Part shown: positions 11,811 to 31,009 of the stretch, in pieces
Layout of the letters: each line of letters opens with the position of its first letter
Numbering within the stretch: the stretch's first letter is position 1
Source of the DNA: Kiritimatiella glycovorans
GTDB taxonomy: Bacteria; Verrucomicrobiota; Kiritimatiellia; Kiritimatiellales; Kiritimatiellaceae
Direction of reading: 5' to 3'
Assembly (NCBI RefSeq): GCF_001017655.1
Contig: NZ_CP010904.1
Coordinates: 2,580,001-2,612,000 of the forward strand
DNA length: 32,000 bases
Position numbers and translations under genes: made by a program
The notes under the pieces: model-generated
What the model was told of the DNA's origin: nothing
What the model saw: only the letters and a program-made list of their open reading frames with translations
Database searches by the model: none

Positions 11811-12941
11811 ATGGGAACCCGCACTCAAAGCAAACATCGTGTCATCAGCGCCGAACTGCTCGGCAGGATCCGCGCCGGAAAGCTGAAGCCCGGGGAGCGC
11901 CTCCCCTCCGAACGGGCCCTGGCCGCCGAGTACGGGGTGGCGCGGCTGACCGCACGGCGGGCGTTGTCCGACCTCGAAGAGCGGGGGCTGGTCCGGCGCA
12001 ACGGACAGCGGGGCACGACGGTGCTCGACGATCTCAACCGGGAAGCGCGCACCCTCACGTTACTTTGTTCGGCCGCACCGTTTTCGATCACGGAGGAGAC
12101 GATCCGGCTGGTGCTGCAGAAGGCGGAGGATCGCGACTACGGGGTGCGGGTCATCCGCGTGATGGAGAACGATGAAAAACCGATGCTCGAGGCCCTGAAG
12201 GTCGGCAACCCCACCATGATCTTCGGGTGGCCGGAGGAGATCTCGCCTTACGGCAGACTCGAACGGGCCGTGCGCAACGCCGGCGATCACGTCGCACTGA
12301 TCGCGGGGCGCATCGAGGGCGATCCGGTGCCGACGGTCACCTGCGACGACCGACGGGGCGTAAAGATGGCCGTCGACCATCTCAGGAAAGCCGGGCACAA
12401 AAAGATCGCGCTCATCGCCCCGAACATCGATCCGGCCCACTCCGTGCTCTCCGTTCAGATCGAGACGTGGCGTGAGGCGGTGTGCGATGTAATGAATGAA
12501 GACGAGATGCGTCGACACTGTATCGCCTTTGACAGCCAGTACGCCAAACATGCACTGATCGAGACCTTCAACCGGTTAAAAAAATACCTTCGCGCCGCGG
12601 AATCGGACTCTGTCACCGCCCTGCTGTGCCTGACGGAAGAACTCGCCACCGCCGCCCTCGCCGCCTGCCGGGCCAAGGGACGATCCGTACCGGACGATAT
12701 GTCAATTATGGAATACGCCTGGACGCCGCGCAGCGAATTGTTCAACCCGCCGCGCACGGGTGTTAATCCTCACCTCGACCGCCATGTCGAGATCGCCTTC
12801 GATCTGCTGGAGCAATGCAGGGCCGGCAAGACCCCCTCCGGGCTTCACCGGCTCGTCCGCCCGGAACTGATCGAGCGCGAGACCGTCGGCCCCATGATGC
12901 GATCATGCCCGCAGGTCCGCGCAGCGGGGCCAGGGCCGTGA
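11811..12941 (+). CDS. Transcriptional regulator: GntR-type winged HTH fused to a LacI/PBP1-type sugar-binding domain
   Basis: N-terminus RVISAELLGRIRAGKLKPGERLPSERALAAEYGVARLTARRALSDLEERGLVRRNGQRGTTV is a GntR HTH. The remainder resembles a periplasmic-binding-protein type 1 effector domain (HKKIALIAPN..., LLCLTEELATAALAACRAKGRSVPDDMSI). The last ~11 codons and the stop lie inside a REP-like repeat. Confidence 0.85.
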   Translation: MGTRTQSKHRVISAELLGRIRAGKLKPGERLPSERALAAEYGVARLTARRALSDLEERGLVRRNGQRGTTVLDDLNREARTLTLLCSAAPFSITEETIRLVLQKAEDRDYGVRVIRVMENDEKPMLEALKVGNPTMIFGWPEEISPYGRLERAVRNAGDHVALIAGRIEGDPVPTVTCDDRRGVKMAVDHLRKAGHKKIALIAPNIDPAHSVLSVQIETWREAVCDVMNEDEMRRHCIAFDSQYAKHALIETFNRLKKYLRAAESDSVTALLCLTEELATAALAACRAKGRSVPDDMSIMEYAWTPRSELFNPPRTGVNPHLDRHVEIAFDLLEQCRAGKTPSGLHRLVRPELIERETVGPMMRSCPQVRAAGPGP

Positions 12942-13022
12942 TCTTATAACGCGCCTGGCCTGCCGGGGGGCAGGCTTACGGCGCTACTACGAACGATATC
13001 ACGCGCCTTGGCCCTTCGAACG
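12908..13022. repeat. REP-like repeat, locus 1 (leader + one stem-loop unit + degenerate second unit)
   Basis: GCCCGCAGGTCCGCGCAGCGGGGCCAGGGCCGTGATCTT...GCCTGGCCTGCCGGGGGGCAGGCTTACGGCGCTACTACGAACGATATCACGC closely matches 30862-30975. It contains the hairpin GCCTGCC-GGGG-GGCAGGC. Confidence 0.8.
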
Positions 13023-17615: not shown

Positions 17616-17649
17616 TGACGATTATTCGTGGATTTATCTTGCCACACCG

Positions 17650-17793
17650 CAGCGATTCTCATTATGGCTTCACCCTTTTCGGTCGGGGTGGCACCCGACC
17701 CTCCCAGTGCCCGAAAATGCGTCGGATATCGACTCGGGAGGGACGGCTGCCACGCCGTCCGCGGTCGGAATGCGGCCATAATGAGAACTGCTG
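17650..17793 (+). mobile_element. 144-bp MITE, copy 1
   Basis: Terminal inverted repeats CAGCGATTCTCATTATGGC / GCCATAATGAGAACTGCTG (13 bp perfect, 19 bp with 2 mismatches). Flanked by the 9-bp direct duplication GCCACACCG (17641-17649 and 17794-17802). By my alignment identical to the copies at 29719 and 30294. Confidence 0.85.
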
Positions 17794-20457
17794 GCCACAC
17801 CGCCCCTGATTAATAATCTGGTTTAGTAAACCAGTAGGGTGCAGACATGTCTTTCTATAAATCCCGACCTCCCTGATGAAGATCGCAGCCTTCTCGTCTT
17901 CGCAGACAAAGCGAAAGCGAACCCGAGCATCAGTCGAGAATGTTTCAGGATTGTGTTCGACCCGAATATATCCGTAGTCGGTCGAGCGATTGTTGAAATC
18001 TCCCCTGCCAGGTCCGTGTCCTCGCTCGAATTTCCGCAGATTCACCCAGTCCCCATCCGACCAAAGATCGACGAAGAGTGTTCCGCCTGATGCCACTCCC
18101 TCTGGCAGGTAGCGAAATGCAATCTTCATTTCCTCGCTGGAGGAAAGGTCTATCGGTTCCCGAAGTACCAATTCGGAACCTGGCTTCATTTTGACCGCCT
18201 CTTTCTCAAGATCGAGGGAGCAGTGATTGCCTTCACAAGCAAACCCTTCGAGGTTTTCGGTGAATGTCGCGCGGCGTATTTCATCGAATTGGTTTGGAAT
18301 GTAGATATCGTTGAGAAACCGGATGACGGCGCCGGCCACTCCTTCGGGATCATCTTCAGGTGAATAGTGACCCGTCTTGAATTGCGGTTGCTCCAGACCA
18401 AATGCGCCTGGGATGCTTGAAATGTATTCGTCTCGCCGATTCCGCTCATCGGGCATGTCCATGCTCTCCCAGATGACCAGATAGGGCCTGTCATAGGAGG
18501 AAGTCAGGAAATCCCAGGCTTTCTGATTGGCCTTCGCTTCCGGCCAGGTGGCATCTTCAGGGACCATTTCAGGAAATGCGCGAATCGAAGCCTGATAGTC
18601 CCCCGTTGGATAAGGAGCGTCGTAGCCTCCTTTCTCGGCGTTCGTGCCGGGAGGCAAGCCCATGTTCTGCCGGGCGTCATTACGGAAGACCACCGCGCCG
18701 ATAGGAACCTTAGGAACCGAACGGACAAAACTTCGCCAGCGATCATGGCGCTTTGCGATTCCCCATCGCCCTCGGTTCAGTCCCGCATTCCCATTGATGA
18801 ATCCATCAAAACGATCCGGGTAATGCTCCGCCATCAGGCGCGCGCCCAGCGGATGGCCGTAGTCGTGACCGAACAGAACGACTTCTTTGAGAGCGAGTTC
18901 AGGGTCTTCGTCCAGTTGCTTGAACGCCTGCCGGATCCACTCAAGGTGGCGATCATACGTGTAGTCGGACTCTGTTGCCGGTTTGTCGGATTTCCCGTGG
19001 CCGACATAATCAATCATAATCGTCCGATAACCCGCTTCGTTGATCAGCGGTACAACCTTGCGAAAGAGATACGACCATGACGGGTTTCCGTGGAGCATCA
19101 GCAAGGTGGGCCGATTGGCCGGGCCGGAGACCGCGTAATGCATGCGGATTCGGCGGTTGCCGTCTGGCAGATTCGGATCATCCACATAGAGATAATGCGG
19201 CTCAAATGGATAACCGCACAGCTTGGCGAAGTGTTCATCCGGAGTGCGCAGCAGTTCCATTGCGCCGTTCTCGGGGGCCTTCTGCTTGCTCTGTGGACTG
19301 TCGGCCTTGCGTGCATGCTTCTGGAAAAAATCCCACATGAGGTCATTGGCGGAGATATCTGTGGTGGATTCACCAAGCATGGCAACGGGCGGTTCCATAC
19401 CGGGCCAGGTGTGGCCGCCGCCGTCAATTTCATACAACACCACCTCTGAACCGTTCTTCCCTTCGCCCCAAACCTTGCGGATCACCCGCATGCCGTCATC
19501 TGCCGTGTCGGGCATTGGGGTAACGGTTGGTTCTTTTGCGCAGCCGTTGGCTTCAACCCAGCAGTTGATCGAATGCTCCACCGAAAAAAACTCCGGTCGC
19601 ATGGATGCCGGAACATTTGAAGTGCCTTTTCCCCGCCCGCCGTTAAACGGAGCCAGTTCGTCCGCCGTCCCGTGGAAGTGGATGACCGACACTGGCCGGG
19701 AGGGGGTGCACGTCTCGGTCCCCATCGGCCCGCCGACCGGAGCGATCGCGGCGAACCGGTCGGCCAGTTCGGACGCTACCCGGTACGCCATCATCCCACC
19801 GTTGGAGATGCCGGTTGCGAAGACCCGTTCCTTGTCCACATTCACGACTGCTTCCAGGTCGCCGAGCAAAGCCTTTGTGAACCCCACGTCGTCGATCTTC
19901 TTCCGCTTGGCATACCCACCGACGTTGCCGGCGTTGAACGTCAGATTCTTGTCTTTGTCGGTCCCACTGCCGAACGGGTAGACGACAACGAATCCGGCTT
20001 CGTCTGCTTTTTCGTTCAGCCCGCTCAGCCGGATCATACTCTGCGGATTGCCGCCGCCGCCGTGAAATGCGACTACAACTGGCGTTTTTCGATCCGCCGT
20101 GTAATTCGGAGGAACGTGGACTTGGTAGCGGCGTTCTTGTCCTTCTACGTCAATGGTCCGGATGCGATCGCCCGCTCCGAAGGTGCCCCCGGCTTCCCCG
20201 GGCTGCGTTTGACCACGCATGGATCGCGCGATCGCACCGGCGAATTCCCGGAAGCTGAGCAAACCGTCGTTGTCTTGGTCAGCCCCCTCCAGACGCGATT
20301 CTAACCGTGGAACGGTTTTGAGTTCAGTCGCCGATAGCTGACCGTCTTTGTTGGCGTCCAGCCGCTCAAACCCTTGCCGCAGGCGGGAGCCGTCCTGAGC
20401 GGCCGCACAACAGACCAAGAAATACAGCAAGCATAAAAGGACGGATGTCTGTCTCAT
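17662..20457 (-). CDS. Secreted multidomain protein A: EF-hand pair + PHB-depolymerase/CE1-like esterase + haloalkane-dehalogenase-like alpha/beta hydrolase + C-terminal beta-rich domain
   Basis: Signal peptide MRQTSVLLCLLYFLVCCAAAQ. Canonical EF loops DANKDGQLSATE and DQDNDGLLSFRE. Esterase motifs VVAFHGGGGN and GISNGG (G-x-S-x-G). Second hydrolase with RTPDEHF..YPFEPHY, LHGNPSWSYLFRK, GHGKSDKP, GHDYG and GHYSPEDDPEG. SD AGGAGGA before ATG 20457. The last ~45-60 codons run through AT-rich intergenic-looking sequence and into MITE copy 1, which supplies the stop. Confidence 0.85.
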   Translation of the reverse strand: MRQTSVLLCLLYFLVCCAAAQDGSRLRQGFERLDANKDGQLSATELKTVPRLESRLEGADQDNDGLLSFREFAGAIARSMRGQTQPGEAGGTFGAGDRIRTIDVEGQERRYQVHVPPNYTADRKTPVVVAFHGGGGNPQSMIRLSGLNEKADEAGFVVVYPFGSGTDKDKNLTFNAGNVGGYAKRKKIDDVGFTKALLGDLEAVVNVDKERVFATGISNGGMMAYRVASELADRFAAIAPVGGPMGTETCTPSRPVSVIHFHGTADELAPFNGGRGKGTSNVPASMRPEFFSVEHSINCWVEANGCAKEPTVTPMPDTADDGMRVIRKVWGEGKNGSEVVLYEIDGGGHTWPGMEPPVAMLGESTTDISANDLMWDFFQKHARKADSPQSKQKAPENGAMELLRTPDEHFAKLCGYPFEPHYLYVDDPNLPDGNRRIRMHYAVSGPANRPTLLMLHGNPSWSYLFRKVVPLINEAGYRTIMIDYVGHGKSDKPATESDYTYDRHLEWIRQAFKQLDEDPELALKEVVLFGHDYGHPLGARLMAEHYPDRFDGFINGNAGLNRGRWGIAKRHDRWRSFVRSVPKVPIGAVVFRNDARQNMGLPPGTNAEKGGYDAPYPTGDYQASIRAFPEMVPEDATWPEAKANQKAWDFLTSSYDRPYLVIWESMDMPDERNRRDEYISSIPGAFGLEQPQFKTGHYSPEDDPEGVAGAVIRFLNDIYIPNQFDEIRRATFTENLEGFACEGNHCSLDLEKEAVKMKPGSELVLREPIDLSSSEEMKIAFRYLPEGVASGGTLFVDLWSDGDWVNLRKFERGHGPGRGDFNNRSTDYGYIRVEHNPETFSTDARVRFRFVCEDEKAAIFIREVGIYRKTCLHPTGLLNQIINQGRCGQQFSLWPHSDRGRRGSRPSRVDIRRIFGHWEGRVPPRPKRVKP

Positions 20458-20488
20458 GTAAGATTCCTCCTGTCTATCGCCAGAACGA
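19313..20488 (-). repeat. 1.18-kb duplicated 5' module (RBS + signal peptide + EF pair + esterase), copy in gene A
   Basis: Aligns with 26397-27571, including long identical runs (e.g. gcatgcttctggaaaaaatcccacatgaggtcattggcggagatatctgtggtgga). The encoded residues 1-382 are collinear, with about 25 differences by eye. Confidence 0.9.
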
Positions 20489-20547
20489 CAACAATCACCT
20501 CTTGGGGTGCCTACACGACAACAAGGTGAATGATTTTGTTCAGTTTC

Positions 20548-23202
20548 CTATTTCATGATGCCTTTGAATATCCAGGCGGTGTTGTGGTTCTTGCGATCGT
20601 TGGCCGCGCCGTCGTAGCCGCCGGTGTAGAATTCGCGGGTATTCCAGGGCGCGAACTCGAGGGTGCGGGTGGAGACAAGCAGCGGATGCGGATCAAGGTT
20701 CGGATCGAACACGCGGACCGTGTCGTAGGTGGCGTCGGCGTGCCGAATCAGCAGCCAGGCGGCGCGGGTGTCGTTGGGCTTGATTCCCGCCACGGTGACC
20801 CAGTGGATCGGTTGGCCGGTAACCGGATGCCGGCCGGGAACGAGGCGGTTGTAGGCGACCAGCCTGCCGCCGCGGAAGTTGCCGAGCTGCTCTTTGAGGA
20901 ATTGCTGGGAGTTGAGTTCATCGGTGACCTTGTGCCCATCTTCAGGGTCGATGCGGAGGATGCGGCCTTCCTGTTCTCTGGAGCCGAGTATGACCTCGTG
21001 GGTGCCGTCGGGCGCGGCTACGGCTGTTATTCCGCGCAAGCCAGCGCCGGGCCGCTGTTCCGGTTTCCAGCGAAAGACCGCCGTCCACCTCGGCTCGGGG
21101 CCGTCGCGACGTACCAACAATCGCGGCGACACGGAGGCGTAGAGCCGGCCGTTGGCCACGGCAAAACCCTGGCAGCGCTTAAACGGGCTGTCATCAAAAT
21201 CGGGGTTCGCATACTCCGGCGTCGATTCCCACCGGATGCGCCCGGGCACGGTAGCGTCGTAGCTGCCGCGGTAGACCTCGCCGGCGCCGGTGCCCGCAAA
21301 CAGGTATTCGACGCCGGTCTTCGCGTCCCGGTGAAAGCCGAAGGCGCGGATGTAGGCCCGGTTCGCATTCGTCACGATCCGGCTTTCGTCCCACCCGCCC
21401 GATCCGTCGTTTCTGACGAAACACACGAGCGCGCCCGACCCCCGGGAACGAATCAGCCCGGCGTCGGCAACGAGCAGGGTAACGGGCGATCCCAGTTTCT
21501 CGCCACGGTGATCGACCGAGAAGGTCACCGAGTCCATCGCGTTGATTCGAAGAGCCCCCGAGAAATTGTGTTCCAGGCGCCACAATTGGTCGGGCCCATC
21601 CTTGCGGAGGATCTGCGCGCCGGGCCGTGGGTCGCTGCCGGGTTGATCGGTCCAGTAGCCGAGACCGGCGAACAATTTTCCTTCGTGCGCAACCAGATGC
21701 ATGGTCTCGGTGCCGCCCAGGAAATGCCCCTCGGGATCGCGCGTTCCCGCAAGATAACTATGTTCGAAGGTCACGCTATTTTGGCTCCCCGCGCCCTCAC
21801 GATCGGGCGGTTCCGCAGCGTAGGCGGTGATCCGGGCGGGAAATCGCGAAGCATCGTCGCCAGCGTGCAGCCGCATGATCAGCGCTGTCATCGGATCGTC
21901 CACCGTGCCAATGAAGGCATTGATCTGACCGTGATCAAGCGGAGCGACATCGATGGCTTGCGCCGGCGTGCAAGCCTCCCGGAGCGCGCGTGCGAAGTCC
22001 GGCGCGAAGCGGTTCAGGAGCATCCGCGTGCCGCCGTAGAAGATCAGGGTGGGCGGAATCTGCTTGTCAGGCTTTACGTGCAATCGGGGCGAGGCGTCGC
22101 GCCAGTTGGCCGGTTTGTCCGTGAAAGCGTTGTGATAGAGTGCCGTCATGCCTTTGCCGTCTTGCGCCTCGAGGTAGCCCGCGATGTCCAGTGCGGCGGT
22201 GTCCAGCAACACGTTGCTCTTGAGGATCGCCAGAGATTTGCCTTCGGCCTTGAGGAAGCGATCGTTCGTGCCGATCAGGCCGGCCAGGTGCGCTCCGGCA
22301 GAGTGCCCCATCAAATGTATGCCAGCCGGATCACCCCCATAGTCATCGATGTGATCGTGAATCCAGGCTATCGCCTTGGCGCAGTCCTGCGCGTGAACCG
22401 GATGCTGCACGCCCGCGTCGTTCGGCCCTTGCGGCGACAAGCGATAATTGATCGAGGCGTAGATATAGCCGTTACTGACGAAATGGTGCATCTTGCCGCC
22501 GACGATGGCTCGATTGGCCTTGTCGCCTCCCCGCCAGCCGCCACCATGAATCATGACAAGAACTGGGCGCCCCGTTTGCGTCGTTTTGCCTTCCGGCACG
22601 TAGAGGTCCAAGCTCAGCAGGTTCGGGTCGACGCCCTCGATCTCGTCGTAGCGGAGATCGAGATGGGCGGTGTGCGGGGGTTCCGGCGGCATCGCAGGCG
22701 CATTTCGTTCCGTTTCCGTCCTGCGATTCCGCGGCCCCGCGTTGTTGCCCGGCAGTTCGTTCTGCTCGATAACCCCGTCGCCATTGCGATCGAGCCTGTC
22801 GAACCAATCTGGGCCACCGGCTTCGGCCTGGGTGACCTTGCCGTCGTTGTCAGCATCGAGTCGTTGGAACAGGCGTTCTTGACGGGTCACCTCAGACTCC
22901 GTCTCTGGCAATGCACCGTTCATGGCCGCGGGCGCCGGCCGGTTCTGGCGACGTTCCTCCCGTCGCCAGCTGCGGGCTTCATCCGGGGTGATTGTGCCGT
23001 CGCCGTTTGCGTCGGCATCGGCTCCCGCCAAGCGTTCGGCAACCGGGGCAAAGCGGGGCGCCTCCTCGTGCGACAAACTGCCGTTGCGGTCGGAGTCGAG
23101 ACGTTTGAAGGCGCGGTCGAGACGATCACCGGCGGCTTGGGCATAGACCGGGCCAGGCTGCAGCATCGCCGCGAAACAGACGAGTGCTAGGACAGACTTC
23201 AT
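20548..23202 (-). CDS. Secreted multidomain protein B: four EF-hand loops + HGGG-type carboxylesterase/lipase-like alpha/beta hydrolase + uncharacterised ~410-aa C-terminal module
   Basis: Signal peptide ...QPGPVYAQA. EF loops DSDRNGSLSHEE, DADANGDGTITPDE, DADNDGKVTQAE and DRNGDGVIEQNE. Hydrolase motifs VLVMIHGGGW and LMGHSAGAHL (G-x-S-x-G). The C-terminal module is homologous to that of protein C. Confidence 0.9.
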   Translation of the reverse strand: MKSVLALVCFAAMLQPGPVYAQAAGDRLDRAFKRLDSDRNGSLSHEEAPRFAPVAERLAGADADANGDGTITPDEARSWRREERRQNRPAPAAMNGALPETESEVTRQERLFQRLDADNDGKVTQAEAGGPDWFDRLDRNGDGVIEQNELPGNNAGPRNRRTETERNAPAMPPEPPHTAHLDLRYDEIEGVDPNLLSLDLYVPEGKTTQTGRPVLVMIHGGGWRGGDKANRAIVGGKMHHFVSNGYIYASINYRLSPQGPNDAGVQHPVHAQDCAKAIAWIHDHIDDYGGDPAGIHLMGHSAGAHLAGLIGTNDRFLKAEGKSLAILKSNVLLDTAALDIAGYLEAQDGKGMTALYHNAFTDKPANWRDASPRLHVKPDKQIPPTLIFYGGTRMLLNRFAPDFARALREACTPAQAIDVAPLDHGQINAFIGTVDDPMTALIMRLHAGDDASRFPARITAYAAEPPDREGAGSQNSVTFEHSYLAGTRDPEGHFLGGTETMHLVAHEGKLFAGLGYWTDQPGSDPRPGAQILRKDGPDQLWRLEHNFSGALRINAMDSVTFSVDHRGEKLGSPVTLLVADAGLIRSRGSGALVCFVRNDGSGGWDESRIVTNANRAYIRAFGFHRDAKTGVEYLFAGTGAGEVYRGSYDATVPGRIRWESTPEYANPDFDDSPFKRCQGFAVANGRLYASVSPRLLVRRDGPEPRWTAVFRWKPEQRPGAGLRGITAVAAPDGTHEVILGSREQEGRILRIDPEDGHKVTDELNSQQFLKEQLGNFRGGRLVAYNRLVPGRHPVTGQPIHWVTVAGIKPNDTRAAWLLIRHADATYDTVRVFDPNLDPHPLLVSTRTLEFAPWNTREFYTGGYDGAANDRKNHNTAWIFKGIMK
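22822..22904 (-). repeat. 83-bp EF-hand cassette shared with gene C
   Basis: 78/83 identical to 26159-26241 while the flanks are unrelated. Encodes ...RLFQRLDADNDGKVTQAE. Confidence 0.85.
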
Positions 23203-23363
23203 AGCGTCTCCAGGGAAGGCATTGGGGGAACGGAAGCAAGTATGATGGTCAAGCCGATGGTGATGATTACTTTCATGGTGACGAGCCCCTTCATACAGGG
23301 CGACCCTGCCGCCACGGCGGAGATTTCATTGCCCATGATTTGAGCCGCCCGGAGCGCCTTCAT
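23199..23363 (-). CDS. Candidate 54-aa small membrane protein bridging genes C and B (not in the ORF track)
   Basis: My translation: MKALRAAQIMGNEISAVAAGSPCMKGLVTMKVIITIGLTIILASVPPMPSLETL*. The ATG (23363-23361) overlaps the stop of C as ATGA, and its TGA (23201-23199) overlaps the ATG of B as ATGA. Third-codon positions are mostly G/C. The hydrophobic stretch VIITIGLTIILASV could span a membrane. An internal ATG (MKVIIT...) follows GAAGGGG. Confidence 0.35.
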   Translation of the reverse strand: MKALRAAQIMGNEISAVAAGSPCMKGLVTMKVIITIGLTIILASVPPMPSLETL

Positions 23364-26300
23364 GGCTTGTACTCCTCGCCTTTTTGCAGCGTGCCCTTGT
23401 AGATCCAGGCCGTGTCGCGCACGTAAGCGAAATCGGCGGCGAAACCACCGAAATACCAGACCTTACCCTTTTCGTCCGGAAAGGGCGACGGTTCAATGGT
23501 GCGCACCCCCTGAAGCCGGACGCCATCGGGCTGGTTCGCGGGATCGTTGATCGCGCCCCAATCATAGGAACCGGGACCGTTGCGCACCAGGAAGTAGGCG
23601 CCGTTAGAGCCCGCCTGCGGACTGCGCGGGTGGATGACGAAAGTGGTGACCAGATAAACCGCCCGGCCGTCATCCGGGCGGGTGAACGGCGTGAACCGGT
23701 TCAACGCGGCGCCAGTCATGAAGACACCGACGTTCGGCCAGGCATCGAACACGTTCGCGAAGTAGTTCTCGTAGTTGATTTCGTCCGTGGCGGCGAACTC
23801 GTTCGTGGGTTCGATGCGCCGGATGACCGGTAGCGGCGGGCGCTCCAGGGCACCAAGCAGCGCCGGTTTGCCATCGCTTCCGGTCACCGTGGTCAGGCCG
23901 CGCATCAGGAATTCGAACGGACCCTCATTTTCAAACCAGGAATAGACCCGTTCCCAGCGCGGTTTCGCTCCGGAGATGCGCCGAAACAGCCCGCCTTGCT
24001 TGCCCCGCTGCCGTTGATTCGAGTAACCGAAAGCCGCGTAGAGAACGCCATCGCAAATTTCCATGCGCTGCGGACGGCCATACGGGCCACCTGCCATCTC
24101 GTTTTCCGGGGTCCAGCGCAGCCGCCCTGGTGCTTGCGGATCGTAGACGCCCCGATAGATGCCGCCGAAGTCCGCGGCGGCGAAAACCTCGCCGTCGTGC
24201 ACAATCAGGTCCCGGATGCCTGCATAACCGGGCTGATCCTCTGGAAGGGGCGCGATCCGTGAAAGGGTCCACGTGCCGGTTTCGTCATTGCGAACCGCGA
24301 CGGTGAGCCACTTCTCTCCCCTGCGGATGTCGTAAAGTCCGGCCGCCAGGAGCGAGACCGGCTTCGGCAACGGTTTGCCGTCAGGATCTTCGGTGAACCG
24401 CAGCACTTCCAGGCAGTTGATGCGCAGGTGGTCCCGGCCGAAGGACTCCTCGGCGATCCACGGCCCGTCGCCGCGGTCCTTGCGCAAAATCTGCGGTCCG
24501 GGATAGCCGGGGTAGGGTTTCACGGTAACATCGCTCTTCAACATGCTGGTGCCGGCGAAGAGCTTGCCCTCGTGGGCGGTGAGCCACATCAGTTCAGTGC
24601 CGCCGAGAAGCTGCCCGTTCGGGTCGCGCGTGCCGGGGAAGTAGTCCTTCTTGAAAGTGAACCAATCGACCTGCTCGCCGATGGGAACGAGCGCCGATTC
24701 CGGCGTGATCGGCCCGCGCTCCGCGCTCTTCCCCAGCTTGGCGACGAATTCCGTCCGGGTGATCTCCCCACTGCGATCCTGGTCGAAGACCTTGAAGATG
24801 GTTTGGTTGGGGAATTCCCGTTGGGTTACCACGCCGTCTCCGTCGAAGTCCATGGCGTGATACCTCAGGTTCAGCGCCTTGTTGGCGGCTTTGTCCGCGT
24901 CGTCTTTGGGTTTGTCTGAACCGGCGGGGGCAGGCTTGGCTTCGGACGTTCCGCCAGGTGAAGCCTCCCTGCCGGGCCAGCGTGCCGATACCGTGCGAAG
25001 CTCCTCGATCGACAAAGCTCCATCCTGGTCGCGGTCCGCGAATCTGAGTATCCTGGCGAGGCTGGGAAACTGCGTGAGTTCGTTGCCGGAGAGCTTCCCG
25101 TCGCCGTTCCGGTCGGCATTGCGGAAGAGGCTTTCGATGCGGTTGTCCGGCAGGGCGGGTGGCATCCCACTCCCGGTGTTTTTCCTCTCCGGCCCCACGA
25201 ATTCGAAGATGCCACCGCCGGGTCCGTAAGCCATGAGGACAGCGTTTTGCCGGTAGCGGACCGGCTTTCCGGTTCCCGCGAGTTTGATTCCGTGGGCCTT
25301 CATGGCCTCGAAGACCGCGGTCACATTCCGGACGGTATGCGTGATGTAGCGGAAGCCGATGGCGTCGGCGGGGCGCCCCTCGAATGTCTGGCGTTCTCCC
25401 GGCGGCGCCAGGAAACGGATGACCGATTGCCCCAGCCCATAGCACACTTCCCTCTGCCCGGGCAGCACGATCGACTCGATCCCGGGCAGCGGTGTCAGGC
25501 CCAGTACATCGCCGGCGAACGATTTGGCGGCCGCGAGATCATCGACAACGAGCCCGAGTTCGATGCCGCGTCTGGTGGCGCCTTCGCCGGCCTCGATCAG
25601 CTCGAGGCGATTGCCGTCCGGATCGGCGACCACCGCAACGCGCGCGCCATCGCGTTCGCTTTCCCGTTCAACGGTAAAACCGAGTCTTTTCAGCTGGTCC
25701 AGCACCGGAGTCAGGCCGGCAACGGGCACACCGATAAAACGGATGCCGTTGACCGCGGCCACCGCTCGGCCGCGATTTGGCGGAGGCGTGGCGTAGACCC
25801 GCAGCTTGATGGCGGATGCGCCGGCGCGGTAGATGTGCATCATGGACGAGTCCGGCATCCGCCGCGGTTGGGCGAACGAACGCAGTCCGAGGCCTTCGGC
25901 ATAGAAACGCCGGGCCTTTTCGAGATCACTGACCACTACGCTGGTTTGCAGGGCTTCGGCCGCCAGCAAAGCGGGTAGGTCGAGGCTTTCGGGAGCGGCT
26001 TCCTTTTTCTGCGCCGCCGGCACCGGCGACCGGTTTGCGGCCGGCTCCACGCTAGGAGACGCTGTTAAGGCAGTCCAAATTTGCCGGTCTTCGGTCGGGT
26101 CCTGCTCCGGTTCGGCAGCTTCGGCCTCGACGGCTTCGGCCTCGGGCTCGGCGGCCGGTTCGGCCTGGGTGACCTTGCCGTCGTTGTCAGCATCGAGTCG
26201 CTGGAACAGGCGCTCTGGACGGGTCAGCTCAGACCCCGTCTGCTGGTTTTGCCGCCACTCCACAAATTCAAAGATGGCACCTCCCGGACCGTGATACATC

Positions 26301-27541
26301 AGCACATTGCCGCGTGGGTTGACCGAGCCGGACAATCCCTCCTCGGTGAGCCCCGTGTGGACAGCGTCGGCGCTCTTGACCTTGTGCGCACGCTTCGCAT
26401 GCTTCTGGAAAAAATCCCACATGAGGTCATTGGCGGAGATATCTGTGGTGGATGCGCCAAGCATGGCAACGGGCGGTTCCATACCGGGCCAGGTGTGGCC
26501 GCCGCCGTCAATTTCATACAACACCACCTCTGAACCGTTCTTCCCTTCGCCCCAAACCTTGCGGATCACCCGCATGCCGTCATCTGTCGTGTCGGGCATT
26601 GGGGTAACGGTTGGTTCTTTTGCGCAGCCGTTGGCTTCAACCCAGCAGTTGATCGAATGCTCCACCGAAAAAAACTCCGGTCGCATGGATGCCGGAACAT
26701 TTGAAGTGCCTTTTCCCCGCCCGCCGTTAAACGGAGCCAGTTCGTCGGCGGTGCCGTGGAAATGAATGACCGATACCGGCGAGGCCGGGTTGCACTCCGC
26801 GGTGCCCATCGGCCCGCCGACCGGAGCGATCGCGGCGAACCGGTCGGCCAGTTCGGACGCTACCCGGTACGCCATCATCCCACCGTTGGAGATGCCAGTT
26901 GCGAAGACCCGTTCCTTGTCCACATTCACGACTGCTTCCAGGTCGCCGAGCAAAGCCTTTGTGAACCCCACGTCGTCGATCTTCTTCCGCTTGGCATACC
27001 CACCGACGTTGCCGGCGTTGAACGTCAGATTCTTGTCTTGGTCGGCCCCACTGCCGAACGGGTAGACGACAACGAATCCGGCGTCATCCGCCTTCTCATT
27101 AAGACCACTAAGTCGGATCATACTCTGCGGATTGCCGCCGCCGCCGTGAAATGCAACTACAACTGGCGTTTTTCGATCCGCCGTGTAATTAGGAGGAACG
27201 TGGACTTGGTAGCGGCGTTCTTGTCCTTCTACGTCAATGGTCCGGATGCGATCGCCCGCTCCGAAGGCGCCCCCGGCTTCCTCGGGCTGCGCAGGACGAC
27301 GCATGGATCGCGCGATCGCACCGGCGAATTCCCGGAAGCTGAGCAAACCGTCGTTGTCTTGGTCAGCCCCCTCCAGACGCGATTCTAACCGTGGGACGGT
27401 TTTGAGTTCAGTCGCCGACAGCTGACCGTCTTTGTTGGCGTCCAGCCGCTCAAACCCTTTCCGCAGGCGGGAGCCGCCCTGGGCAACCGCGCAATTGACG
27501 AAGATACACACCGAGCACAAAAGGATGAATGTCGGTCTCAT
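23360..27541 (-). CDS. Secreted multidomain protein C: EF pair + PHB-depolymerase/CE1-like esterase + VOC remnant + EF loop + acidic linker + two VOC/glyoxalase domains + two EF pairs + uncharacterised ~440-aa C-terminal module
   Basis: Signal peptide MRPTFILLCSVCIFVNCAVAQ. Seven canonical EF loops: DANKDGQLSATE, DQDNDGLLSFRE, DADNDGKVTQAE, DRNGDGKLSGNE, DRDQDGALSIEE, DFDGDGVVTQRE, DQDRSGEITRTE. Esterase GISNGG. VOC motifs VVVSDLEKARRFYAEGLGL...VADPDGNRLELIE and LVVDDLAAAKSFAGDVLGL...YGPGGGIFEFV. SD GGAGGA before ATG 27541. Confidence 0.9.
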   Translation of the reverse strand: MRPTFILLCSVCIFVNCAVAQGGSRLRKGFERLDANKDGQLSATELKTVPRLESRLEGADQDNDGLLSFREFAGAIARSMRRPAQPEEAGGAFGAGDRIRTIDVEGQERRYQVHVPPNYTADRKTPVVVAFHGGGGNPQSMIRLSGLNEKADDAGFVVVYPFGSGADQDKNLTFNAGNVGGYAKRKKIDDVGFTKALLGDLEAVVNVDKERVFATGISNGGMMAYRVASELADRFAAIAPVGGPMGTAECNPASPVSVIHFHGTADELAPFNGGRGKGTSNVPASMRPEFFSVEHSINCWVEANGCAKEPTVTPMPDTTDDGMRVIRKVWGEGKNGSEVVLYEIDGGGHTWPGMEPPVAMLGASTTDISANDLMWDFFQKHAKRAHKVKSADAVHTGLTEEGLSGSVNPRGNVLMYHGPGGAIFEFVEWRQNQQTGSELTRPERLFQRLDADNDGKVTQAEPAAEPEAEAVEAEAAEPEQDPTEDRQIWTALTASPSVEPAANRSPVPAAQKKEAAPESLDLPALLAAEALQTSVVVSDLEKARRFYAEGLGLRSFAQPRRMPDSSMMHIYRAGASAIKLRVYATPPPNRGRAVAAVNGIRFIGVPVAGLTPVLDQLKRLGFTVERESERDGARVAVVADPDGNRLELIEAGEGATRRGIELGLVVDDLAAAKSFAGDVLGLTPLPGIESIVLPGQREVCYGLGQSVIRFLAPPGERQTFEGRPADAIGFRYITHTVRNVTAVFEAMKAHGIKLAGTGKPVRYRQNAVLMAYGPGGGIFEFVGPERKNTGSGMPPALPDNRIESLFRNADRNGDGKLSGNELTQFPSLARILRFADRDQDGALSIEELRTVSARWPGREASPGGTSEAKPAPAGSDKPKDDADKAANKALNLRYHAMDFDGDGVVTQREFPNQTIFKVFDQDRSGEITRTEFVAKLGKSAERGPITPESALVPIGEQVDWFTFKKDYFPGTRDPNGQLLGGTELMWLTAHEGKLFAGTSMLKSDVTVKPYPGYPGPQILRKDRGDGPWIAEESFGRDHLRINCLEVLRFTEDPDGKPLPKPVSLLAAGLYDIRRGEKWLTVAVRNDETGTWTLSRIAPLPEDQPGYAGIRDLIVHDGEVFAAADFGGIYRGVYDPQAPGRLRWTPENEMAGGPYGRPQRMEICDGVLYAAFGYSNQRQRGKQGGLFRRISGAKPRWERVYSWFENEGPFEFLMRGLTTVTGSDGKPALLGALERPPLPVIRRIEPTNEFAATDEINYENYFANVFDAWPNVGVFMTGAALNRFTPFTRPDDGRAVYLVTTFVIHPRSPQAGSNGAYFLVRNGPGSYDWGAINDPANQPDGVRLQGVRTIEPSPFPDEKGKVWYFGGFAADFAYVRDTAWIYKGTLQKGEEYKP
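26159..26241 (-). repeat. 83-bp EF-hand cassette shared with gene B
   Basis: See 22822-22904. Confidence 0.85.
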
Positions 27542-27571
27542 GGAAGATCCTCCGGTCTATCAGCAGAACGT
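26397..27571 (-). repeat. 1.18-kb duplicated 5' module, copy in gene C
   Basis: See 19313-20488. Similarity extends ~30 nt upstream of the ATG through the RBS, with one 1-nt indel. Confidence 0.9.
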
Positions 27572-27577
27572 CGCGGG

Positions 27578-27976
27578 TCAGCGTTTTCTGGAAGGGCGCG
27601 CCCTTCCAGAAATACGTTGCGCCCGCTTGTTCTCTCCATACCGGGCTCTCTCCTCCCGCAGCAAATGCACACAGTGCTCGTTAAGGCTTTCTCCGTGGCG
27701 CATGGCACCGATGGCCAAGGCTTTGTGCAGATCCTGGCCGACGCGAACAACAAATTTCCCTGAGTATTCTCTTCCTGCTGTCGCCTCGGGCAGGGGTTCA
27801 CCATCCTGCTCATAGATGTCGATCCACTCTTCGACCACCTGACAGAGCTCGCGATACACCTTGGCCTCTTCATCTCCGTGAATGCCACCGAGCATGAGGC
27901 CCGGACACGTCCCAACGTAGCACTGGTCTTCTTCCGACCACTCAACAATCTTGAGGTATCGATCACTCGTCTTCAT
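27578..27976 (-). CDS. hicB: HicB-family antitoxin (RNase H-like fold N-domain + C-terminal ribbon-helix-helix)
   Basis: MKTSDRYLKIVEWSEEDQCYVGTCPGLMLGGIHGDEEAKVYRELCQVVEEWI is HicB-like. The C-terminal SGKFVVRVGQDLHKALAIGAMRHGESLNEHCVHLL is RHH-like. The ATG overlaps the hicA stop (ATGA). Confidence 0.85.
   Translation of the reverse strand: MKTSDRYLKIVEWSEEDQCYVGTCPGLMLGGIHGDEEAKVYRELCQVVEEWIDIYEQDGEPLPEATAGREYSGKFVVRVGQDLHKALAIGAMRHGESLNEHCVHLLREERARYGENKRAQRISGRARPSRKR
27586..27611. other. 26-bp perfect palindrome TTCTGGAAGGGCG/CGCCCTTCCAGAA
   Basis: Read directly from the sequence. It lies in the last 11 codons of hicB, 45-70 nt upstream of the ATG of gene C. Confidence 0.9.
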
Positions 27977-28167
27977 TCTGTCACCTCGCGAACTGCTCTC
28001 TCAACATCTCGCTCCTGATACCGCTTCGCATCATGCGAAAGGCCACCGCTGAGCGTTATCTTCGCCCCTTTGGCGTGGGTGAAGTTGCGGTGGCTACCCT
28101 TGCCGCCGCGATCCACGAAACCAGCCTTCTTCAGGTCCCGAATCAGCTCACGTATCTTCCTTGGCAC
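27973..28167 (-). CDS. hicA: HicA-family mRNA interferase toxin
   Basis: 64 aa, (M)PRKIRELIRDLKKAGFVDRGGKGSHRNFTHAKGAKITLSGGLSHDAKRYQ, with the typical HicA G-S-H core. The start is GTG. Confidence 0.85.
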   Translation of the reverse strand: MPRKIRELIRDLKKAGFVDRGGKGSHRNFTHAKGAKITLSGGLSHDAKRYQERDVERAVREVTE

Positions 28168-28203: not shown

Positions 28204-28439
28204 CAGGTGATCCGTTGTTCCGGAGAGAACGCTACCGTTCAGCCGCTTCGGGAGCCGACGCCTGAGCGGTGGTCCCGATAGCGGAGCCAGTTTTTTCGAA
28301 CTTTAAGTCAGCATCAGGGCTCCCGCTTCCTGCGAGTGTTCTGCCACAACTCCGGCGAGTTGTCCATAGCCTGCGGCCGTCGAGAATGGGTCATTGAACT
28401 CGTCGGAGACGGTCGCATGGCTGTGGGCAACTCGCCTCT

Positions 28440-29336
28440 TCATGCCGCTCTCCATTTCGACTCCGCCTCGATTCCGAAGTACGCCTCATCGGGCGTTCGA
28501 TCCCCGATCGATGAATGCGGACGTTCGGTATTGTAGCGCTCCAGCCACGCCCCCACGCCGCGCCCGGTTTCCCGGGGCGTTTCATAGCTTTTCAGATAAA
28601 CATCCTCATACTTCAGGCTCCACCACAGCCGCTCGATGAACACATTGTCCACCCAGCGGCCCGTCCCATCCATGCTGATTTTTAAGCCCTCGTGCTGTTT
28701 CATCTCCCTGATCCAATCCGTCGACGTGAACTGCGAGCCTTGATCGGTATTCATGATCTCCGGCGCCCGCCCGGCCGTGGCCACCGCCGATCGAAAGGCC
28801 CGCAGGCAGAACGCGGTATCCATCGTGGTGCTCAGTTCCCACCCGAGCACTTTCCGGCTGTACCAGTCCATCACGGCCACCAGGTAGCAATACCCTCTCG
28901 GCATCGGGATATAGGTGATATCGGCGCACCAGACCTGATTCGGCCGCGTAACCGCCACTCCACGCAGCAAATACGGATAGATGCGATGCCCCTTGCCCGG
29001 TGCGCTGGTCCGCGGCCGCGGGCGGAGAGCCGAGATATGCGCGAGCCTCATCAGCCGGCGAAGCCGCTTTCGCCCCACGTTCAACCCCTGTTCGCGCTTG
29101 AGCAAGCGCCTTAACCCCCGCGTGCCGAACGTCGGGAAACGCAGATGAAGTTCGTCGAGCATCCTCATAACCCGTAAGTCCGTGATCGTCGCCCTGGGCT
29201 CCGGCGGCGTCAACCGGTTCCGGTTGACGCCCAGCAGAGCACATTGGCGCCGCAGCGAGCGTTGAGCATCAGAAGGATCCACCAGAGCCTTCCTCACGGA
29301 TCGATCCCCAACTCGACGCATTTTTTTTCCATCCAC
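28440..29336 (-). CDS. IS3-family transposase OrfB (DDE integrase core), expressed as an OrfAB fusion by -1 frameshift
   Basis: NQVWCADITYIPM, MNTDQGSQFTS, NVFIERLWWSLKYE, YNTERPHSSIGDRTPDEAY. Confidence 0.9.
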   Translation of the reverse strand: MDGKKMRRVGDRSVRKALVDPSDAQRSLRRQCALLGVNRNRLTPPEPRATITDLRVMRMLDELHLRFPTFGTRGLRRLLKREQGLNVGRKRLRRLMRLAHISALRPRPRTSAPGKGHRIYPYLLRGVAVTRPNQVWCADITYIPMPRGYCYLVAVMDWYSRKVLGWELSTTMDTAFCLRAFRSAVATAGRAPEIMNTDQGSQFTSTDWIREMKQHEGLKISMDGTGRWVDNVFIERLWWSLKYEDVYLKSYETPRETGRGVGAWLERYNTERPHSSIGDRTPDEAYFGIEAESKWRAA

Positions 29337-29599
29337 TCCTTCTCAATCACCAGCTGACCTACTTTTCGCTCCAGCCGCTCGCAGTTCTTTTCCAGCCCGC
29401 GCTTTTCTAGGTCCGGCGCGTTCTTGCGCTCAAAGAGATCGGCTGCGCCCTCTGTGAGCTCCGTCTTCCATCGAGTCACCATGGTCGGATGCACGTTGTT
29501 TTCCGCCGCGATCTCCGCCACGGTCTTGATGCCGCGCAACGCTTCCATCGCGATACGCGCCTTGAACTGCGCGCTGTGATTTCGTCTCGGCTTCTTCAT
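29294..29599 (-). CDS. IS3-family transposase OrfA (HTH + leucine-zipper-like)
   Basis: MKKPRRNHSAQFKARIAMEALRGIKTVAEIAAENNVHPTMVTRWK... Confidence 0.9.
   Translation of the reverse strand: MKKPRRNHSAQFKARIAMEALRGIKTVAEIAAENNVHPTMVTRWKTELTEGAADLFERKNAPDLEKRGLEKNCERLERKVGQLVIEKEWMEKKCVELGIDP
29321..29328 (-). promoter_or_regulatory. Programmed -1 ribosomal frameshift site (A AAA AAA) of the IS3 element
   Basis: Minus strand reads atg gaA AAA AAA tgc in the orfA frame. orfB is in the -1 frame and overlaps from here. Confidence 0.8.
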
Positions 29600-29718
29600 C
29601 GGTTCTCCTTTCGGTCTCCTTTTTACCGGGAGAACCCGATGCGGTCTATCCGCCCCTCACTGGCTCCGTTTTCCGGGACCACCGCTGAACCTCTCGGACT
29701 TCAGGTCGCGGTCACGGA

Positions 29719-29862
29719 CAGCGATTCTCATTATGGCTTCACCCTTTTCGGTCGGGGTGGCACCCGACCCTCCCAGTGCCCGAAAATGCGTCGGATATCG
29801 ACTCGGGAGGGACGGCTGCCACGCCGTCCGCGGTCGGAATGCGGCCATAATGAGAACTGCTG
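29719..29862 (+). mobile_element. 144-bp MITE, copy 2 (inside the transposase pseudogene)
   Basis: Same sequence as copy 1. 9-bp TSD GGTCACGGA (29710-29718 and 29863-29871). Confidence 0.85.
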
Positions 29863-30293
29863 GGTCACGGAGCTTCTGTATGCGCTGTCGGCCCTCGACA
29901 ATCCAGGCGCGGGAAACCCTGCTGCGTCCGGGCGCTGAATCGGGATACAAGGTTTTCTGATCACGTGAACTGACTCCGGCAGCTGTGGCACGCAAGATAC
30001 GGTCACGAAGATCGTCGGCCCTGTTGACCGCGTCGTAACTTTTAAGCCTGACCTCCTTCGATGTGTCTGCCTCATGGCGACGTACACGCGGCTTGCGGAT
30101 CTCCTCATCAATACCGTCAATTCGAAGTCCTACGCGGGTTCCGCCGGCACGTCGGCAGCCTCTGTCCCCTGCCGGCTTGTAGGCCGGACCACACAGTTCT
30201 GTGACCTCTTCAGCCAGAATATCGGCGATCAGGGTTCGCATTTCACCACGCAGCCAGTCACGGAAAACATCTCCTGCTGCAGACGGTTCAACT

Positions 30294-30437
30294 CAGCAGT
30301 TCTCATTATGGCCGCATTCCGACCGCGGACGGCGTGGCAGCCGTCCCTCCCGAGTCGATATCCGACGCATTTTCGGGCACTGGGAGGGTCGGGTGCCACC
30401 CCGACCGAAAAGGGTGAAGCCATAATGAGAATCGCTG
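30294..30437 (-). mobile_element. 144-bp MITE, copy 3 (inverted; inside the transposase pseudogene)
   Basis: Reverse complement of copy 1. 9-bp TSD GGTTCAACT (30285-30293 and 30438-30446). Confidence 0.85.
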
Positions 30438-30861: not shown

Positions 30862-31009
30862 GCCCGCAGACCCGCGCAGCGGGACCAGGGCCGTGATCTT
30901 TCACGTGCCTGGCCTGCCGGAGGCAGGCGTACGGCGCTACTACGAACGATATCACGCGCCTGGCCTGCCCGAGGGGCAGGCGTGCGGCGCTACTACGAAC
31001 TTATCTACG
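30862..31009. repeat. REP-like repeat, locus 2 (leader + two tandem stem-loop units)
   Basis: The leader GCCCGCAGACCCGCGCAGCGGGACCAGGGCCGTGATCTT is followed by unit b 30907-30957 (GCCTGCC-GGA-GGCAGGC) and unit c 30958-31009 (GCCTGCCC-GAG-GGGCAGGC). Each unit ends ...CGGCGCTACTACGAAC. It abuts the ahcY stop. Confidence 0.8.

Follow-up and report, generated by a model that had tools for sequence, protein, structure and literature searches.

A window of 32,000 nt from the chromosome of Kiritimatiella glycovorans L21-Fru-AB (NZ_CP010904.1, positions 2,580,001 to 2,612,000) carries three adjacent genes for large mosaic proteins, which we call C, B and A in their order along the minus strand. With slightly better than even confidence, we read this trio as a horizontally mobile operon of secreted, Ca2+-stabilized, multi-modular esterases and hydrolases that would act on decorated (acylated and sulfated) exopolymers. 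The evidence comprises the identities of the domains, the folds of two modelled domains, the scars of module shuffling, a second genomic copy of the block and the sulfatase and glycosidase context of orthologous genes. The trio is best filed among the multi-modular secreted polymer-processing enzymes rather than as a wholly new kind of system. A preliminary description, made from the DNA letters alone, had proposed a candidate extracellular Ca2+-linked enzyme system. The genes do co-occur in other genomes. They form a mobile island, and "system" is to be read as a transferable operon.

Layout of the three genes

Gene C (23360-27541, 1393 aa), gene B (20548-23202, 884 aa) and the open reading frame (ORF) of gene A (17662-20457, 931 aa) are co-directional on the minus strand and separated by gaps of 157 nt (C-B) and 90 nt (B-A), in agreement with the preliminary description. 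The C protein starts with a signal peptide, an EF-hand pair, a CE1/polyhydroxyalkanoate (PHA)-depolymerase-type esterase domain, a remnant of a VOC domain and a lone EF loop, and continues with an acidic linker, two VOC domains (VOC1 and VOC2), four EF loops and a 7-bladed beta-propeller. B combines a signal peptide and four EF loops with a BD-FAE/COesterase-type serine esterase (GHSAG) and a 7-bladed beta-propeller. A joins a signal peptide, an EF pair and a CE1/PHA-depolymerase-type esterase to a class I haloalkane dehalogenase (HLD-I)-like hydrolase, a beta-sandwich resembling carbohydrate-binding modules (CBMs) and a non-native tail of 57 aa. The N-termini of A, B and C have the n-h-c features of signal peptides and AxA-type cleavage sites (CAAA|Q, AVA|Q and VYA|Q), as judged by eye from the sequence, and export of the three proteins is plausible. 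The genes are presumably co-transcribed, and a strong GGAGG ribosome-binding site (RBS) precedes both A and C. Both genomes with the block are public, and automatic annotation gave the genes labels such as "Haloalkane dehalogenase", "Esterase, PHB depolymerase family" or "EF-hand domain-containing protein"; an annotated K. glycovorans "EF-hand domain-containing protein" (P0131) is C itself (100% identity over 1393 aa). We found no functional characterization of these proteins or of the propeller family in the literature searched.

A second copy in another phylum

The same block (C', a 54-aa ORF, B' and A') is present in Sedimentisphaera cyanobacteriorum L21-RPul-D3 (Planctomycetota; CP019633, 2032231-2054855, locus L012), and looser arrays occur in metagenome-assembled genomes (MAGs) of the Planctomycetes-Verrucomicrobia-Chlamydiae (PVC) group. 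The co-occurrence proposed as a check with the preliminary description was thus found. Both strain names, L21-RPul-D3 and L21-Fru-AB, carry the Lake 21 prefix, in keeping with an origin of the two isolates in one mat. BLASTN aligned positions 27569-26155 and 25115-17848 of the window to the Sedimentisphaera locus at 97.3-97.5% identity overall. Scored over 300 nt at a time, identity reaches 99-100% from ~26700 to ~20500, an interval that takes in the complete B gene, the C-B gap and two-thirds of C from its 3' end, excepting a 1.04-kb block. Values are lower, 74-98%, within A and at the 5' end of C. At the protein level, 881 of the 884 residues of B are identical in B'; between A and A', 76 of 874 residues are substituted. 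The shared sequence runs from 28-31 nt upstream of the C start codon to four codons before the natural stop of A and is in effect just the three genes, in a putative operon of ~9.7 kb in the window and ~8.7 kb in Sedimentisphaera. These nucleotide comparisons indicate a very recent transfer of the block between the phyla Kiritimatiellota and Planctomycetota. Contamination of an assembly was excluded as a source of the near-identity between phyla: the copies differ by the 1.04-kb indel and a diverged A gene, and each lies within the flanks of its own genome.

The composition and surroundings of the block also bear on its mobility. In Sedimentisphaera it has 61-63% GC within surroundings of ~36-53% GC. 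A DDE transposase adjoins it at one end, and at the other end lie DUF2924, a serine recombinase and a transposase fragment. In the window, GC at third codon positions (GC3) is 0.64-0.76 for the trio and 0.83-0.89 for two adjacent housekeeping genes (E1 and E2). Because the trio is lower than its neighbors in GC3, the block may have been acquired in K. glycovorans too.

Two further observations concern the Sedimentisphaera genome. Within the 92-98% identical A gene, a patch of 74% nucleotide identity (~19419-19715), roughly residues 250-350 of the esterase, looks like the product of gene conversion by another paralogue. A second, older mosaic locus (L001; CP019633, 1159158-1181272) has its GC raised to 55-60% between locus coordinates 7360 and 15360. 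It contains an A-like gene without EF hands, a chimera of EF hand, FG-GAP and half a propeller (P0017), an esterase-FG-GAP gene and a recombinase fragment. P0017 matches the B propeller at 88% identity over its C-terminal half, and the locus shares 83-87% nucleotide identity with pieces of the window.

Orthologous loci and the CBM-like domain point to glycopolymers

The preliminary description could place these architectures in no described system. Wider searches show that they are not unique. The full A architecture recurs in at least 10 other full-length proteins (46-92% identity), and VOC-VOC-EF-propeller and EF-esterase-propeller proteins recur as well. Propeller genes lie in co-directional arrays of large genes in MAGs of Verrucomicrobiota, Brocadiaceae and Planctomycetota, in the order VOC-VOC-EF-propeller, EF-propeller, EF-BD-FAE-propeller and EF-BD-FAE. 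These arrays also hold FG-GAP/ASPIC, sulfatase, beta-lactamase-fold and PAF-AH-like fusions, and one of them adjoins a phage-type integrase. One Verrucomicrobiia array of EF-hand multi-domain genes (locus L003) ends in a gene for a flavin-dependent (tryptophan-type) halogenase (19893-21179), which may be of interest in view of the HLD-like domain of A. Orthologues of A with 61-65% identity adjoin sulfatases, an FGE-sulfatase, a GH30 glycoside hydrolase, BNR-sulfatase fusions and a LacI-type regulator, and more EF-hand multi-domain genes lie within the same loci.

The C-terminal domain of A (17836-18309, minus strand; aa 717-874, 158 residues), first noted as beta-rich, is a CBM-like beta-sandwich. 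An AlphaFold2 (AF2) model from a 23-sequence alignment had a mean predicted local distance difference test (pLDDT) score of 91.9, and its best Foldseek matches were CBMs: the porphyran-binding 8xmz (TM 0.62/0.70), followed by members of CBM27, CBM15, CBM22 and CBM16. The top structures listed were 8xmz, 1of3, 1gny, 4xup and 2zew, with TM scores of 0.5-0.7. The domain has no Pfam match at E <= 10 and belongs to no sequence-defined CBM family. The sulfatase and glycosidase loci of the A orthologues, together with this domain, favor glycopolymer processing over the xenobiotic-degrading set that had been suggested initially.

The habitat is consistent with such a substrate. K. glycovorans L21-Fru-AB is an anaerobic, halophilic and saccharolytic type strain from a gypsum-bearing cyanobacterial mat of Lake 21, Kiritimati, where calcium sulfate deposits are large, and its describers propose a specialization on sulfated exopolymers (PMC5148204). 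The reported substrate range of the organism is narrow and confined to sugars; EF-hands, esterases and dehalogenases go unmentioned in the same paper (PMC5148204).

Esterase domains

Each gene encodes a serine hydrolase with a G-x-S-x-G motif, as the preliminary description stated, and profile matches place them in two groups. The esterase domain of C (26408-27229, minus strand; aa 105-378) and its counterpart in A share the lipase box GISNG and match the model of type-1 short-chain-length (scl) PHA depolymerase catalytic domains (NF050058) over its full length, with 172.2 bits in C and 176.6 bits in A (cut-off 150). TIGR01840 and Esterase_PHB match this domain as well, and an oxyanion histidine can be seen by eye on the N-terminal side of the lipase box. 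The esterase of B (21853-22713, minus strand; aa 164-450) has the lipase box GHSAG at aa 299 and matches BD-FAE (PF20434; 107.1 bits, threshold 26.8) and COesterase (69.6 bits). BD-FAE proteins are bifunctional feruloyl and acetyl-xylan esterases.

The profile matches of the A and C esterases raise the question of whether the trio is an extracellular PHA depolymerase set that attacks polyhydroxybutyrate (PHB) or its copolymer PHBV released by lysing mat organisms, with the propeller and beta-sandwich in place of the usual substrate-binding domain. Besides the NF050058 score, lipase box and signal peptide that the A and C esterases share with scl-PHA depolymerases, one of their solved relatives is titled "Esterase, PHB depolymerase family" (8daj, E = 3e-13). 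The closest solved relative of the A esterase, however, is a feruloyl esterase (9j07, E = 2e-24), and NF050058 is of the "hypoth_equivalog" type. Furthermore, scans with Pfam and NCBIfam detected no PHA substrate-binding domain and no Fn3 or Thr-rich linker; the downstream regions are instead HLD-like plus CBM-like domains in A and VOC, EF and propeller domains in C, fusions to unrelated enzymes that set the trio apart from the classical depolymerases. The BD-FAE assignment of the B esterase, the sulfatase and glycoside hydrolase surroundings of orthologues and the sugar-only substrate range reported for the organism (PMC5148204) all fit polyesters poorly, and we regard a PHA depolymerase set as unlikely.

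The closest known relatives of the exopolymer enzymes that we favor are multi-modular secreted carbohydrate esterases (CE1-type feruloyl and acetyl-xylan esterases, and BD-FAE). They resemble the trio in their signal peptides and G-x-S-x-G serine alpha/beta-hydrolases; A has an appended CBM-like sandwich, and relatives of the trio show tandem fusions of several catalytic modules. In contrast to these esterases, the modules of the trio are joined by EF-hand pairs and not by Pro/Thr linkers, and the esterase modules are found together with VOC domains, an HLD-like hydrolase and an unclassified 7-bladed propeller; no CAZy-classified CBM sequence family was detected.

The HLD-like hydrolase of A

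The haloalkane-dehalogenase-like assignment made for A was borne out by profile searches and by matches to PDB entries. The alpha/beta-hydrolase domain (18310-19260, minus strand; aa 400-716) scores marginally above the cut-off of the haloalkane dehalogenase model NF002043 (267.4 versus 265 bits), and the equivalog models NF002938 and NF002873 are far under their cut-offs. It aligns end to end with 5esr, 6f9o and 4mj3 (E values of 4e-57 to 4e-54), all titled "Haloalkane dehalogenase" in the PDB, which we take to be DccA, DpcA and DmrA, respectively. Against 5esr and 6f9o, the nucleophile motif GHDYG aligns with cqDWG, and tgHyspeD with ggHfvqeD. The Asp nucleophile, the catalytic His, the acidic residue and the cap-domain Trp of HLD-I enzymes are kept. 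Unlike those enzymes, the domain is exported and fused, and a Tyr stands directly after the nucleophile in place of the halide-stabilizing Trp. The HDYG motif is nearly invariant in a 23-sequence family alignment, in which the CBM-like domain always follows the HLD-like domain. With the Trp-to-Tyr change nearly invariant, these domains form a subfamily of their own, exported and perhaps directed at substrates other than haloalkanes. DatA, an active HLD, also has Tyr at this position, so the domain may still act as a dehalogenase. Such proteins, with Tyr for Trp and a CBM-like domain behind, are attractive for enzymology.

In P0125, a K. glycovorans paralogue of 777 aa, the HLD-like sequence breaks off immediately behind GHDYGHPLGA and gives way to a PAF-AH-like domain. 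The C-terminus of P0125 (ISTPSRFRSTPHREF...) is similar to ISTPPRFRSTPHRAF, a peptide from the outer end of the insertion sequence (IS) element of the IS3 family in the window (~28394-28520, plus strand), and a related IS copy may have truncated P0125.

VOC domains of C

As first described, C contains two VOC domains (glyoxalase/bleomycin-resistance fold; 25172-25945, minus strand; aa 533-648 and 662-790), with matches to Pfam Glyoxalase in two stretches (65.3 bits, threshold 20.6) and to Ble-like_N (31 versus 24.5). In the PDB, the pair has no close sequence relative, the nearest being 4hc5 at E = 0.006. The usual metal-binding His appears, by eye, to be absent from the first strands of the two domains (QTSVVVSD and ELGLVVDD). 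A VOC remnant (26231-26389, minus strand; aa 385-437) is homologous to the C-terminal end of VOC2 (aa 734-791), with a local alignment score of 80 compared with 25.8 +/- 4.1 (maximum 46) for shuffled sequences. The preliminary description took VOC domains to be normally cytoplasmic. A word-index search returned four homologues of the pair, and the closest free-standing relative (P0378) consists of two VOC domains behind its own signal peptide. The VOC lineage therefore includes exported members.

The beta-propeller module

B and C end in the same module (20551-21771, aa 478-884 in B; 23363-24658, aa 962-1393 in C; both minus strand), with 36% identity over ~440 aa (E = 1e-54). What had been called an unknown ~410-aa module indeed lacks a Pfam family: neither copy has a match even at E = 10, with the Kelch, WD40, BNR, FG-GAP and PQQ profiles included, and a profile search found no PDB sequence match below E = 0.02. 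Its fold, in contrast, is modelled with confidence. An AF2 model from a 52-sequence alignment (pLDDT 94.7, predicted TM score 0.93) is all-beta with about seven 4-stranded blades, and faint Kelch motifs occur in at most 4 of the 52 relatives. An exhaustive profile search retrieved 1276 representative clusters at E <= 1e-10. In these proteins the propeller stands alone after a signal peptide or follows an EF pair, a BD-FAE esterase or a VOC pair; elsewhere it is fused to sulfatases (once via an EF hand), a phosphodiesterase, PKD or Ig-like domains and, in one case, a type IX secretion system (T9SS) sorting tail. The cluster count and fusion settings indicate that the propeller defines a sizeable, extracellular and uncharacterized domain family. 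Arginines R150, R207, R254 and R377, and also R351 (B-module numbering), recur near the strand starts of successive blades in the model, where they could form an anion-binding face.

Esterase, HLD-like, VOC and propeller domains together call to mind an extracellular detoxification array that would inactivate or sequester halogenated depsipeptide or lactone toxins of mat cyanobacteria and other neighbors. The match of the C VOC domains to Ble-like_N and their first strands, apparently without a metal His as in binding-type VOC proteins, fit such a function, as do a weak match of B to a chloramphenicol hydrolase model and the top Foldseek match of the propeller, virginiamycin B lyase (2z2o). 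Related arrays also carry beta-lactamase-fold and PAF-AH-like domains and lie near the flavin halogenase gene. However, the lyase match is no better than that of WD40 proteins (TM ~0.5, 9% identity), the halide-stabilizing Trp is Tyr throughout the HLD-like family, and all resistance-type matches are far under their cut-offs. The CBM-like domain and the sulfatase and glycoside hydrolase context fit glycans better, which leaves detoxification improbable, a little below polyester degradation in our estimate.

A bolder proposal concerns the propeller itself, with which a new family, catalytic or binding anionic glycans and in use across PVC bacteria, might begin. According to this proposal, the repeats that code for EF hands would be the recombination joints of a combinatorial and mobile "cassette secretome" that re-assorts esterase, HLD-like, VOC, sulfatase, FG-GAP/ASPIC and beta-lactamase-fold bodies between phyla sharing a mat. 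We consider the proposal as a whole possible but doubtful.

Module shuffling within the locus

The traces of shuffling listed in the preliminary description (a duplication, the VOC remnant and an 83-bp cassette) were all confirmed. The duplication, of 1175 bp (19313-20487 in A, 26397-27570 in C; minus strand, 94.5% identity), spans the RBS, signal peptide, EF pair and esterase, and the A and C proteins are 92% identical over aa 1-390. The EF-loop cassette of C (ERLFQRLDADNDGKVTQAE; 26155-26246, minus strand) is also found in B (22817-22908); its core of 83 nt (26159-26241 in C, 22822-22904 in B) is 94% identical and extends to ~93 nt. This cassette is the point where the Sedimentisphaera C' gene departs from C of the window. 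There, the 1.04-kb block of C (25116-26154), containing the acidic linker and both VOC domains, is absent. The left junction of the indel lies in the DADNDGKVTQAE cassette common to B and the right junction in a DRNGDG loop; at the joint, C' reads like the EF pair of B (95.6% identity over 136 nt). In addition, the signal peptide and first EF pair of B are nearly the same as in P0122, a protein of the A architecture.

A gap ORF of 54 aa (23199-23363, minus strand) spans the C-B gap, as described initially, and overlaps its neighbors by ATGA at each end. Its second half (MKVIITIGLTIILAS) is similar to two signal peptides, MKRIITVLGLSPILIC and MKTTITIISLSFILA, that are encoded by homologous genes of the L003 array. 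The ORF is probably a relic signal-peptide-coding start left by a displaced gene 5' end rather than a functional small gene, although the ATGA overlaps would also suit the latter. A role as a conserved partner gene was rejected: the one real match, the ORF of the near-identical Sedimentisphaera island (~97-98% identity, annotated as a gene in that genome), carries no information, and the sequence resembles the relic of a signal peptide. Given the indel junctions, the shared cassettes, this relic and the domain switch in P0125, repeated EF-loop and signal-peptide/EF sequences appear to act as homologous joints for module exchange.

The end of gene A also differs from that of its relatives. Orthologues end 4-10 residues past GIYRKT (~aa 874) and homology fades at ~aa 870, which indicates that the last 57 aa of A (17662-17835, minus strand) are not native. 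The ORF runs past its natural end through a small palindrome into a 145-nt repeat, which holds the final 44 codons. The palindrome (17818-17834, minus strand; CTGGTTTACTAAACCAG) has perfect 7-bp arms and a 3-nt loop, lies between the island boundary (17848) and the repeat, and could be a remnant terminator or recombination site.

With such scars, the locus might be evolutionary debris, a recombination hot spot on a mobile island whose products are partly non-functional chimeras. The VOC remnant, lone EF loop, relic signal peptide and repeat-derived tail that cost A its stop codon would all be explained, and IS and miniature inverted-repeat transposable elements (MITEs) are active nearby, with IS-like sequence also at the end of P0125. 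Yet uninterrupted frames of 884-1393 aa exist in both genomes, the catalytic motifs are kept, the 80 synonymous and 76 non-synonymous codon differences between A and A' give a rough dN/dS of ~0.3, and all modules come from families conserved across many genomes. A locus of debris is therefore very unlikely.

EF-hand loops

The count of 13 EF loops in the preliminary description was reproduced with a strict pattern (D-x-[DN]-x-[DNS]-G-x-[LVIM]-x-x-x-E): two in A, four in B and seven in C. By chance, shuffled versions of the three proteins yield 0.007 matches, and the other reading frames of the window contain none. All 13 loops have Glu at position 12, together with Asp 1, Gly 6 and a hydrophobic residue at position 8. 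The Pfam models agree, with scores for A, B and C of 30.7, 53.2 and 101.4 bits for EF-hand_5 (threshold 25.9) and of 30.8, 53.7 and 99.6 bits for EF-hand_1 (threshold 25.4). Loops occur N-terminally, as in the C pair (27317-27469, minus strand; loops at aa 34 and 60, with EF-hand_7 over aa 25-75), and between domains, as in the four internal loops of C (24749-25114, minus strand; aa 810, 836, 898 and 920), and also singly. Paired loops are 22-28 residues apart from start to start, with ~10-16 residues between adjacent loops. From these motifs, the loops are expected to bind Ca2+ and to have a stabilizing or spacing role, which the gypsum of the habitat makes plausible.

The compact loops, ~10-16 residues apart, recall lanmodulin (LanM) and XopAW, yet the scores for the corresponding NCBIfam models are far under the cut-offs (22-49 bits versus 135 for lanmodulin, NF053806; at most 64 versus 120 for XopAW), and the EF pairs of the trio are set within large enzymes. 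A Pro at loop position 2, the hallmark of LanM, is found in 0 of the 13 loops. Cellulosomal dockerin enzymes are also alike in secretion, in paired 12-residue Ca2+ loops and in the attachment of one kind of cassette to diverse catalytic bodies. Dockerin loops end in Asp. Least probable of all, in our estimate, is the dockerin-like docking first suggested from this spacing, in which the EF pairs would attach the enzymes to a cohesin-like scaffold or the cell surface as in a cellulosome: the same kind of N-terminal cassette is indeed present on every protein of these arrays and C has a faint Dockerin_1 match (PF00404; E = 0.0016), but that match covers only 20 residues of one protein at 19.0 bits (cut-off 22.9), canonical EF-hand models score far above their cut-offs with Glu 12 in every loop, and loops also stand singly and between domains. 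No cohesin-like gene was found among the genes and ORFs of the window or of 18 related loci, the rest of the genome not having been scanned.

A model for exopolymer processing

In the model that we favor, A, B and C would be exported by the Sec pathway into the Ca2+-rich, gypsum-bearing hypersaline mat, where their EF pairs would bind Ca2+ and give a stiffer, more stable N-terminus and stiffer inter-domain linkers. The esterase and hydrolase domains would then remove ester-linked or other side groups from sulfated or acylated exopolymers, with the CBM-like domain and propeller holding or further processing the anionic glycan. The polymer exposed in this way would next be open to sulfatases and glycosidases encoded elsewhere. 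In the DNA, EF-loop and signal-peptide/EF cassettes of near-identical sequence would provide joints for homologous recombination through which catalytic modules are swapped, duplicated and deleted, and the whole block would have moved recently between phyla.

Several results weigh against this model. No gene for a sulfatase or glycoside hydrolase adjoins the trio in the window. The likeness of the A sandwich to CBMs is at the level of fold only (9-15% identity), and searches of the PDB with Foldseek relate the propeller to generic propellers only (TM ~0.5), with virginiamycin B lyase at the top followed by WD40 proteins, LRRK2 and paraoxonase. The NF050058 scores above the cut-off in A and C point to polyesters and not to glycans. 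The lone EF loop, VOC remnant and extended tail of A mean that some products could be partly degenerate. The scan for promoters and terminators in the window did no better than on shuffled sequences, with no sigma-70-like promoter or clear terminator either to define the operon or to refute it. To our knowledge, no part in the breakdown of glycans is established for HLD-like or VOC domains.

If the model is correct, an undescribed modular toolkit of EF-linked esterase, HLD-like and VOC enzymes plus the propeller is at work in those PVC bacteria that dominate sulfated-exopolymer turnover, and its substrates could fill gaps in the de-decoration of recalcitrant mat and algal polymers. The locus would also be a clean natural case of domain shuffling with visible joints in the EF-loop and signal-peptide cassettes. 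Of particular interest are a propeller family of more than 1,000 clusters without a Pfam model, the candidate recombination joints formed by EF cassettes and the near-identical block in two phyla, as expected of an inter-phylum transfer.

Flanking elements

A hicA-hicB toxin-antitoxin pair (27578-28167, minus strand) lies directly upstream of C; the hicB stop codon begins 39 nt upstream of the C start codon, with 36 nt in between. The only sigma-70-like sites on the minus strand are upstream of hicA and at the hicA/hicB junction, and the trio may be transcribed from the toxin-antitoxin promoter. Beyond hicAB is an IS3-family transposase (orfA and orfB; 28440-29599, minus strand).

The 145-nt repeat at the end of A is hairpin-forming and MITE-like, with three 100%-identical copies at 17650-17794 (plus strand), 29719-29863 (plus strand) and 30294-30437 (inverted). 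The first two copies, in direct orientation, enclose the trio together with hicAB and the IS3 element. The stretch containing copy 1 (17646-17850) folds as a long imperfect hairpin with a z-score of -6.1 and has no Rfam match; an Rfam scan of the whole window returned no RNA family. The element looks like a recently active MITE. An ORF of 194 aa without a Pfam match (29657-30241, minus strand) lies between and across the two right-hand copies and may be a fragment of a disrupted gene. A further repeat of ~107 nt is located outside the trio (12907-13013 versus 30862-30965, 90.7% identity), as is a shorter one (12945-12994 versus 30950-31000).

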